The notes beneath the pieces were generated by a model. It was not told the DNA's origin. It made no database searches and saw only the letters and a program-made list of their open reading frames with translations. Shown here in pieces: positions 1,336 through 1,651 of a DNA stretch of 5,322 nucleotides. Every line of letters starts with the position of its first letter. Position 1 is the first letter of the stretch. The DNA is from a virus. Taxonomy: Duplodnaviria; Heunggongvirae; Uroviricota; Caudoviricetes. The translations under genes were made by a program, and so were the position numbers. The stretch covers positions 1 through 5,322 of the IMG/VR virus record IMGVR_UViG_2703718820_000005; one strand, 5' to 3'.

Positions 1336-1369
1336 AAAAAAAACGCCAGCCACAACAGTTGCGCTGGCG
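1336..1369 (-). terminator. Intrinsic terminator readable on the minus strand (GC hairpin followed by U8 on the minus strand)
   Basis: CGCCAGC (1344-1350) pairs with GCTGGCG (1363-1369) around a 12-nt loop. The A8 run at 1336-1343 becomes a U8 tract 3' of the hairpin on the minus strand; there is no T-tract on the + side. Confidence 0.45.
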
Positions 1370-1420
1370 GTGGTAATCCCCATGGAGGAAGTAGGACATT
1401 AGATTTCGAACATCGGCTAT

Positions 1421-1450
1421 GTTTTAAACAAAAATAGTTCCTGGTGTCAA
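1421..1450 (-). promoter_or_regulatory. Candidate sigma70 promoter on the minus strand (perfect -35 TTGACA, weak -10)
   Basis: The reverse complement of 1445-1450 is TTGACA. At 16-18 bp downstream on the minus strand lie TTTAAA / TTAAAA / TAAAAC, each only a 3-4/6 match to TATAAT. A transcript from here would end at the 1336-1369 terminator, roughly 50-80 nt. Confidence 0.25.
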
Positions 1451-1468
1451 CAATAACGGTGAGAAATT

Positions 1469-1651
1469 ATGACATTTATACATCAGTTAATGCTGTACTT
1501 CTGTACGGCGGTCTGTGTGCTGTATCTCCTTTCGGGTGGGTACAGGGCAGTGCGCGATTTCTGGCGCAGGCAGATTGACAAAAGGGCCGCTGAGAAAATC
1601 AGCGCCAGTCAGTCAGCCGGAAGCAAACCCGAAGAGCCCGTTACTCCTTAA
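1469..1651 (+). CDS. Small hypothetical membrane protein, 60 aa (N-terminal hydrophobic helix, charged C-terminal tail)
   Basis: ATG at 1469 is preceded by GGTGAG at 5-nt spacing. The peptide has a hydrophobic segment LMLYFCTAVCVLYLL followed by an R/K/E-rich tail. No family recognised. Confidence 0.45.
   Translation: MTFIHQLMLYFCTAVCVLYLLSGGYRAVRDFWRRQIDKRAAEKISASQSAGSKPEEPVTP

Follow-up and report, generated by a model that had tools for sequence, protein, structure and literature searches.

An Esr41-like small RNA gene predicted between the esterase and lysis genes of a Stx-type prophage

What, if anything, is encoded on the minus strand between the esterase gene and the lysis genes of a Shiga toxin (Stx)-type phage? 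The stretch of DNA considered here (5,322 nucleotides (nt), IMG/VR record IMGVR_UViG_2703718820_000005, hereafter the window) is late-region DNA of a lambdoid prophage of the Stx type, in which the 3' part of a gene for a NanS-p-type sialate O-acetylesterase is followed by an open reading frame (ORF) of 60 residues, belonging to the DUF1378 family, and by the lysis genes. An initial description of this DNA, made from its letters and denoted here as the original prediction, had noticed a leftward terminator and a promoter-like element in the intergenic region, and had suggested that a short antisense RNA faces the small membrane peptide and might restrain it, in an arrangement resembling type I toxin-antitoxin loci. 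The observations described below confirm the individual elements and lead to another interpretation of their role: with a probability of about 0.72, positions 1336 to 1450 of the minus strand would constitute a self-contained small RNA (sRNA) gene of the Esr41 kind, acting in trans, as judged from its homology to characterized relatives.

The hairpin found behind the esterase gene is made of a G+C-rich 7-bp stem, in which CGCCAGC (1344-1350) pairs with GCTGGCG (1363-1369), and a loop that reads CACAACAGTTGC on the plus strand and GCAACUGUUGUG on the minus strand. Its folding energy on the minus strand is about -17 kcal/mol, inner loop pairs included. On that strand it runs into eight U residues, whereas the plus strand after the hairpin reads GTGGTAATCCCC. 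As the original prediction stated, the U-tract therefore belongs to the minus strand only, and the alternative that it offered, a bidirectional structural element ending the upstream gene, can be rejected because the plus strand has no such tract. The TTGACA element is also as described, a perfect hexamer (1450-1445 on the minus strand) 76 bp to the right of the hairpin, followed by a weak -10, which might be either TAAAAC or TTAAAA (1427-1422, with a 17-bp spacer and a preceding TGT). The window contains two TTGACA hexamers where 3.7 would be expected, and the hexamer by itself thus proves nothing; promoter and terminator exceed chance together because they are conserved across related loci, as shown below. 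A consensus scan for promoters and terminators called neither element, since the -10 lacks its final T and the 12-nt loop exceeds the limit of 8 applied in the scan, and the outcome must be considered uninformative, rather than negative, under these rules.

The RNA delimited by these elements would measure about 79 nt, within the 50-80 nt that had been anticipated for a transcript spanning roughly 1415 to 1336, and homology places its boundaries at 1414 (or 1415) and 1336. Its 5' end is predicted at G1414 (or C1415) and its 3' end within the U8 tract, 7 nt beyond the esterase stop. The predicted fold consists of a 5' hairpin, an open seed, a small hairpin and the terminator, which is the layout of Esr41, and the 5' stem-loop corresponds to the Esr41 hairpin GAUGC/GCAUC. 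Regarding coding potential, ATG triplets at nt 16 and nt 32 of the RNA open frames without a stop up to the predicted transcript end, and the ATG at nt 2 is followed by a frame of only 4 codons. The minus-strand ORFs of 173 and 33 residues are mechanical. The position of these and of the surrounding features is collected in the following table.

Table 1. Predicted elements of the sRNA gene and neighbouring features in the window
Feature	Positions	Strand	Basis or remark
NanS-p-type sialate O-acetylesterase gene, 3' part (SASA + DUF6645)	64-1329	+	Pfam; flanking gene, convergent with the predicted sRNA gene
Esterase stop codon, TAA	1327-1329	+	Sequence
Predicted Esr41-like sRNA, about 79 nt	1336-1414	-	Rfam Esr41 model and model R1
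U8 terminator tail (A8 on the plus strand)	1336-1343	-	Sequence; likely Hfq proximal-face binding site, by analogy with Esr41 and PasA/PasC
Intrinsic terminator hairpin (1369-1363/1350-1344; 12-nt loop 1362-1351 with inner pairs)	1344-1369	-	
Predicted seed region CUUCCUCCAUGGGG, anti-Shine-Dalgarno-like	1378-1391	-	Alignment with the Esr41 seed UUCUCCAUGGGG
Predicted 5' stem-loop GAUGUU/AAUGUC, 6 bp including two G-U pairs	1395-1414	-	Fold
Hexamer TAAAAC, weak and -10-like (spacer of 18 bp)	1421-1426	-	Sequence
-35 hexamer TTGACA of the predicted sRNA promoter	1445-1450	-	Sequence
DUF1378 ORF, 60 residues	1469-1651	+	Pfam PF07125, E 2e-37; phrog_494; flanking, outside the RNA gene
DUF826 gene	1677-1949	+	
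P21-type holin gene	2026-2241	+	
185-residue ORF, phrog_1085 (function unknown), without Pfam family	2242-2802	+	
Lysozyme gene	2839-3372	+	
Small hydrophobic ORFs between lysozyme and Rz genes	3665-4013	+	
Rz gene	4015-4482	+	
Small terminase subunit gene, start only	after Rz	+	

The identification of this region as Esr41-like is based on two independent covariance models, both of which place a full-length match at virtually the same site (1336-1414 and 1335-1407 of the minus strand). In a permissive Rfam scan, the Esr41 family model (RF02676) aligned over its entire length (positions 1-74 of 74) with 1407-1335, scoring 30.4 bits (E 0.0078). An equal match was obtained in two identical contexts (L107 and L109), and the equivalent site of the Sakai prophage Sp5 yielded a full-length match of 28.1 bits, while the genuine Esr41 present in SpLE1 reached 108.6 bits. 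Because the score falls below the gathering threshold of the family (102 bits), the element is filed here as a divergent Esr41-like homologue and not as a member of RF02676. The second model, R1, derives from the aligned 200 nt located upstream of the DUF1378 gene in 80 IMG/VR loci and comprises 15 distinct Stx-phage variants, with both the window and Esr41 excluded. R1 matched positions 1336-1414 from end to end (positions 1-82 of 82) with 43.9 bits and an E value of 5.9e-9, and it also found the genuine Esr41 in three genomes, again in full length (21-24 bits, E 4e-4 to 2e-3).

The homology comprises the promoter as well. That of Esr41 reads TTGACA-ACGCTAACTATTTTTAAT-TATATA-TTCAT-G(+1) and that of the window TTGACA-CCAGGAACTATTTTTGTT-TAAAAC-ATAGCC-G; a 10-mer, AACTATTTTT, is found in both spacers at the same offset, in a segment covered by neither model, and Esr41 has its TATATA where the window has the -10 hexamer. 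The cloned 74-nt Esr41 starts at the G that follows the promoter (GAUG), and the +1 of Esr41, as well as those of the sRNAs PasA and PasC, is the 30th nucleotide after TTGACA. It is this common geometry, together with the homology, that points to G1414 (or C1415) as the 5' end and to the length proposed above, and the window would thus possess, like Esr41, a promoter of its own and a +1 at the G of a GAUG. Outside the segment that extends from the -35 to the terminator, the window and the Esr41 loci are unrelated, indicating that the unit of homology is the sRNA gene itself. We show here, at the level of sequence, a conserved homology that embraces promoter, body and terminator and retains the seed nucleotides.

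Esr41 (also denoted EcOnc14) is an Hfq-binding sRNA encoded in an island of enterohaemorrhagic Escherichia coli (EHEC), SpLE1/OI-43/48. It shares with the window element the TTGACA hexamer and the 18-bp spacer containing AACTATTTTT, a similar size (74 versus about 79 nt), the seed core CUCCAUGGGG with its GGG, and a terminator of the form CGCC(A/G)GC...GCUGGCG followed by seven or eight U residues. In contrast, the sequence of the 5' hairpin and the terminator loop differ, Esr41 has UUCUCC where the window has UUCCUCC, and its second seed is UCCCUCC (the one that recognizes bfr) instead of UACCACC. The location is also different, since Esr41 lies in SpLE1 at about 1.9 kb from iha, whereas the window element is situated among the late genes of a phage, with the esterase gene on one side and the lysis genes on the other. 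A search of the GTDB species representatives with a DNA pattern of the family recovered, from E. coli and S. flexneri, the canonical Esr41 only; 15 further matches, in unrelated taxa, were taken to be due to chance.

A further line of evidence comes from the conservation of the element in related loci. Among the 80 IMG/VR loci carrying a DUF1378 gene, 76 present an R1 match in the same place; of the rest, three (L017, L080 and L081) combine the same promoter with an unrelated body and one is truncated. The -35 hexamer is found in 76 of 81 related loci, and the combination of TTGACA, 18 nt and TAAAAN in 77 of 81. The terminator arms show a conservation of approximately 90-98%, while the loop, the spacer and the 5' part vary. 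In an alignment of 19 variants, the CTCCAT core and the terminator stem are invariant, the T-run is kept in all variants, and the base pair just inside the invariant stem appears as C-G, U-G or U-A among relatives. RNAalifold, when applied to the same 19 variants, recovered only the invariant terminator core and no compensatory pairs. No covariation is claimed for the 5' hairpin, because the partner segments differ between variants. When compared with the intergenic regions of 5,426 complete E. coli genomes, the allele of the window itself reached an identity of about 75% at the most, and none of the 40 matches listed had an RNA gene annotated under it. An identical 60-residue DUF1378 protein is encoded on many public contigs, and in the ten places that were read, all of them in NCBI draft assemblies, the 139-nt intergenic region was 100% identical to that of the window (10/10), whereas the downstream lysis regions were mosaic.

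Two observations made on these loci deserve separate mention. The loop at 1351-1362 is peculiar to the window allele, most relatives carrying UUCCAUUCCUGCC, and on the plus strand it reads CACAACAGUUGC. This includes CACAACA, which is the consensus of the motif targeted by the R1 seed of GcvB, the seed mimicked by AgvB. In L017, L080 and L081, the unrelated sRNA body measures about 96 nt and follows the same TTGACA promoter, some 100 nt upstream of the start of DUF1378; its terminator is long (GCCGCCAGCA...UGCUGGCGGC), and its fold has a z-score of -3.2. The occurrence of this body in the slot suggests an exchange of RNA bodies, the scaffold around them remaining fixed.

Neither the kind of element nor its location is new. 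PasA (85 nt) and PasC (79 nt), described in E2348/69, a strain of enteropathogenic E. coli (EPEC), are Hfq-stabilised sRNAs validated by Northern blot, and they were listed with an esterase gene on one side and the following gene on the other, in the order "> < >". PasA has EHEC homologues, EcOnc51 and EcOnc52, which were identified as peaks in Hfq crosslinking and analysis of cDNAs (CRAC), and both PasA and PasC show many trans partners in data from the ligation and sequencing of interacting RNAs (RIL-seq). The order in the window (esterase, convergent sRNA, lysis genes) is precisely the published slot and orientation of PasA and PasC, in which a SASA esterase gene converges with the sRNA and holin and lysozyme genes follow, with PasC ending 2 nt past the esterase stop. 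The likeness extends to the TTGACA -35, the distance to the +1 and the terminator, GCCAGC...GCUGGC followed by a U-run, and the 79 nt predicted from homology for the window RNA would be close to the length of PasA and PasC (79-85 nt). PasA and PasC depend on Hfq and, together with EcOnc51 and EcOnc52, they are all prophage-borne, as is the element of the window. Their bodies and seeds are, in contrast, unrelated to those found here, neither R1 nor the Rfam Esr41 model matches PasA or PasC, and neither DUF1378 nor DUF826 is present in those Pas loci that were examined. Identity with PasA or PasC at the sequence level was thus rejected, only the -35 and the terminator arms being alignable. The window element is a divergent Esr41 homologue lodged in the PasA/PasC slot, within a genus of prophage sRNAs already described. 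A published remark indicates that Rfam Esr41 matches are frequent near PasD, on the other side of the esterase gene, although it was taken no further.

AsxR and AgvB (RF02703 and RF02702) represent another possible affiliation, as they are also short Hfq-binding sRNAs, which Stx and other lambdoid prophages encode in antisense orientation to their late operon, within the moron region that follows PR'. However, they lie between stx and the esterase gene rather than after it, they measure 51-60 nt, and they act as sponges of FnrS and GcvB. This identity was discarded, since no Rfam match to them exists in the window at E values up to 10. In the Sakai prophages, Sp5 has its AsxR on the upstream side of the esterase gene, after stx2B, and the copy in Sp4, EcOnc52, is of the PasA/PasC type. 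As separate observations, RNAs of the STnc100/PasD type were found upstream of the esterase gene in L083 (1923-2182), in L107 (254-740, as two tandem copies) and in L109 (300-490), and Sp5 carries the convergent AsxR as well. With these RNAs located upstream, the esterase gene is thus flanked by sRNA genes on both sides.

If the window element is an sRNA of the Esr41 kind, its likely targets can be deduced from those of Esr41, which represses chuA, cirA and bfr by pairing with their ribosome-binding sites, as established by compensatory mutations (Waters et al.). According to the primer table of these authors, mutation M1 converts GGG into CUC within CCAUGGGG of Esr41 and is compensated by chuA-M1 (CUC to GAG) and by cirA-M1, while mutation M2 alters UCCCUCC and is compensated in the GGAGGGA of bfr. 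The ribosome-binding site of Sakai chuA, CCUCAUGGAGAA, is a perfect 12-bp complement of the Esr41 segment UUCUCCAUGGGG, and the M1/chuA-M1 mutants hit exactly this duplex. The window RNA reads CUUCCUCCAUGGGGA at this point, and would form 11 contiguous pairs with chuA, versus 12 in the case of Esr41; its seed CUCCAUGGGG retains 10 of the 12 nucleotides of Esr41 seed 1, including the validated GGG (1381-1379). The alteration of seed 2 suggests that the target set probably differs from that of Esr41. By analogy, the window RNA probably shares chuA and cirA, and not bfr, with Esr41. When duplexes were predicted with the initiation regions of all eight plus-strand genes of the window, they were loose, rich in loops and no better than shuffled sequences, and these predictions provide no evidence for a phage target acted upon in trans.

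These elements can be integrated in a model in which a sigma-70-type promoter (TTGACA, 18 bp, TAAAAC) would direct transcription from about G1414 leftwards, convergent with the esterase gene, until the hairpin at 1369-1344 and the U8 tract cause termination some 79 nt further on. Judging from its relatives, the RNA would be produced in lysogens, independently of the Q-dependent late promoter, and Hfq would bind and stabilise it through the terminator and the U tail. The exposed anti-Shine-Dalgarno seed CUCCAUGGGG may then pair in trans with ribosome-binding sites of the host, repressing translation as Esr41 does, with the haem receptor gene chuA, and probably cirA, as targets. Transcription, the exact ends of the RNA, its Hfq dependence and its targets are in this model extrapolated from Esr41, PasA and PasC.

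A number of observations weigh against this interpretation. No transcript, Hfq or target data were found for this allele or its Stx-phage relatives, and the Sp5 copy is not in the list of 63 orphan Hfq-bound peaks obtained by Hfq-CRAC in Sakai, a list that contains Esr41 and the PasA-like EcOnc51/52. The Rfam score is far under the gathering threshold, and the window is the most divergent member beside a DUF1378 gene (43.9 bits with R1, versus 90-110). The -10 hexamer lacks the highly conserved final T at -7, and its being missed by the promoter scan counts on the same side; the conservation of the -35 could owe something to the overlapping leader of DUF1378. The 5' hairpin is weak, the fold z-score of the 79-nt RNA (-1.45) is no better than that of shuffled sequences, structural covariation is limited to a single terminator pair, and two mismatches separate UACCACC from the GGAGGGA of bfr. 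The poor -10, the divergence of the allele, the weak fold and the absence of Sp5 from the CRAC list would also be compatible with a decayed or silent relic, in which the terminator stops stray leftward transcription and the promoter is too weak to yield a functional RNA. Such a relic is nevertheless unlikely. The -10 of PasC (CAGAAA, at the same offset) is equally poor, and yet PasC is detected in Northern blots. The window allele retains a perfect -35, together with an intact spacing, seed and U8 terminator, nearly all related loci keep the TAAAAN hexamer, and the allele is identical in ten independent assemblies in spite of their mosaic flanks.

A distinct possibility is that the RNA acts mainly in cis, as a guard or timing device for lysis and not as a regulator of the host. 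Between esterase and DUF1378, the Q-antiterminated late transcript would contain the entire complement of the RNA, and either convergent transcription or the formation of a duplex, with cleavage by RNase III, might damp read-through into DUF1378, DUF826, holin and lysozyme genes. In its favour, the slot directly upstream of the lysis cassette is kept while its body is swapped among three unrelated types (Esr41-like, PasA/PasC-like and L017), with the RNA antisense to the late operon in every case; moreover, any late transcript must cross the sRNA gene, because the hairpin has no U-tract on the plus strand. However, Esr41 works in trans from a context that is not phage-late, with validated host targets, PasA and PasC have the many RIL-seq partners mentioned above, and the most conserved part of the RNA is the short seed and not the entire antisense stretch. 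In addition, the moron sites behind PR' accumulate convergent sRNA genes with no known role in cis. An action mainly in cis is, consequently, improbable. Both notions could be combined by assuming that the esterase-lysis junction is a fixed socket for sRNA genes, retained in place by an added cis role that gates read-through from stx/nanS-p into the lysis genes, with the RNA being at once a host regulator in the lysogen and a brake on lysis. In this scheme the scaffold (TTGACA, the +1 at 30 nt downstream, and GCCAGC...GCUGGC-U7) would be maintained and at least three body types exchanged, gating would proceed via convergent transcription and full antisense pairing, and the RNA would repress the haem receptor gene chuA while the AsxR of the same phage de-represses chuS. 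We regard this combination as speculative and rather doubtful.

The relationship with the 60-residue peptide, which was the core of the original prediction, did not hold. A pairing of the type I toxin-antitoxin sort, with a toxic membrane peptide kept in check by the RNA or by the promoter of the latter, is suggested by the size of DUF1378, with its single hydrophobic helix at the N-terminus and charged tail (as deduced from hydropathy), by the proximity of the -35 hexamer, located 19-24 nt upstream of the DUF1378 ATG, and by the presence of the RNA gene next door in 76 of the 80 DUF1378 loci. Indeed, hok/Sok, tisB/IstR-1 and ldr/Rdl also consist of a small hydrophobic-peptide ORF beside a short RNA gene in the opposite orientation. 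The promoter had been placed within the leader of the peptide ORF, which is correct for the -35 hexamer only; control of the peptide by the RNA does not follow, as the predicted 5' end is situated upstream of the ATG, at a distance of 55 nt, and the RNA extends away from the ORF, overlapping neither the latter nor its Shine-Dalgarno sequence (GGTGAG, about 1458-1463). In contrast with the type I loci, there is thus no overlap between RNA and mRNA and no extended complementarity: 6% of shuffled sequences form an equally good duplex with the peptide initiation region. Nor do the two parts form an obligate pair, since the same promoter and terminator scaffold occurs without DUF1378 nearby in Esr41 (SpLE1) and in PasA and PasC (E2348/69), and DUF1378 is found with a different RNA body in L017, L080 and L081. 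A consensus scan found no promoter for the peptide itself, whose gene lies in the late operon, and DUF1378 is not a described toxin family, Pfam (DUF1378) and PHROGs (phrog_494) both giving its function as unknown. All this makes a toxin-antitoxin pair very improbable. The DUF1378 gene belongs, as one ordinary gene among others, to the Q-dependent late operon.

If the trans-acting sRNA is expressed as proposed, Stx-type prophages, including stx1 carriers, would bring into their hosts an Esr41-like repressor of iron- and haem-uptake genes, and Esr41-type regulation, affecting chuA and cirA and thus the sensitivity to colicins Ia and Ib, would be far wider than the single SpLE1 locus and would travel with toxin genes. 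The homology, which begins precisely at the -35 and stops at the terminator, also speaks for an origin of Esr41 in phages, and the connection between Esr41 and the PasA/PasC slot bears on the origin and swapping of sRNAs of the accessory genome. In practice, such RNAs are missed because the high Rfam threshold for Esr41 excludes them. Given that the element kind and the slot were both previously described, the result must be considered incremental.

As for the genes surrounding the element, the esterase gene encodes 636 residues in its full length, as deduced from contexts identical to that of the window, and DUF1378 is the first gene of a block composed of DUF1378, DUF826, holin and lysozyme. 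One of these contexts (L109) is 99.98% identical to the window across 4651 nt, and another (L107) directly follows stx1B. A scan of the GTDB species representatives with the DUF1378 protein gave no match, and the papers on DUF1378 and NanS-p make no mention of an RNA in the esterase-DUF1378 intergenic region. The ORF of 185 residues found between holin and lysozyme is present in only 2 of the 10 contexts (L108 and L109), the intergenic region being common to all, and it can therefore be seen as a mobile insert in the lysis cassette.

Several minor observations concern the rest of the window. The lysozyme gene is followed by a non-coding gap of about 290 nt (3373-3664), which contains, inside the late operon, a strong plus-strand intrinsic terminator (a 15-bp stem at 3463-3495 and a U-run). 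This gap could harbour another small RNA or a 3' end, and its Rfam matches are at chance level only. Three small hydrophobic ORFs follow consecutively, one of 43 residues (3665-3796), one within the ORF at 3643-3915 (from about 3800) and one within the ORF at 3840-4013. The two that were compared with Pfam, namely the first and the third, gave no match. The block that they form recurs, with 98.6% identity and a hypothetical annotation, in phages vB_EcoS-569R3, 705R7 and 783R2. Finally, the 5' part of the small terminase gene includes, at 4913-4965, a 12-nt tandem repeat, AAATCGATCATG, present in 4.4 copies, which is rich in GATC (Dam) sites and encodes the DH-rich repeat IDHEIDHKTDHEIDHD.

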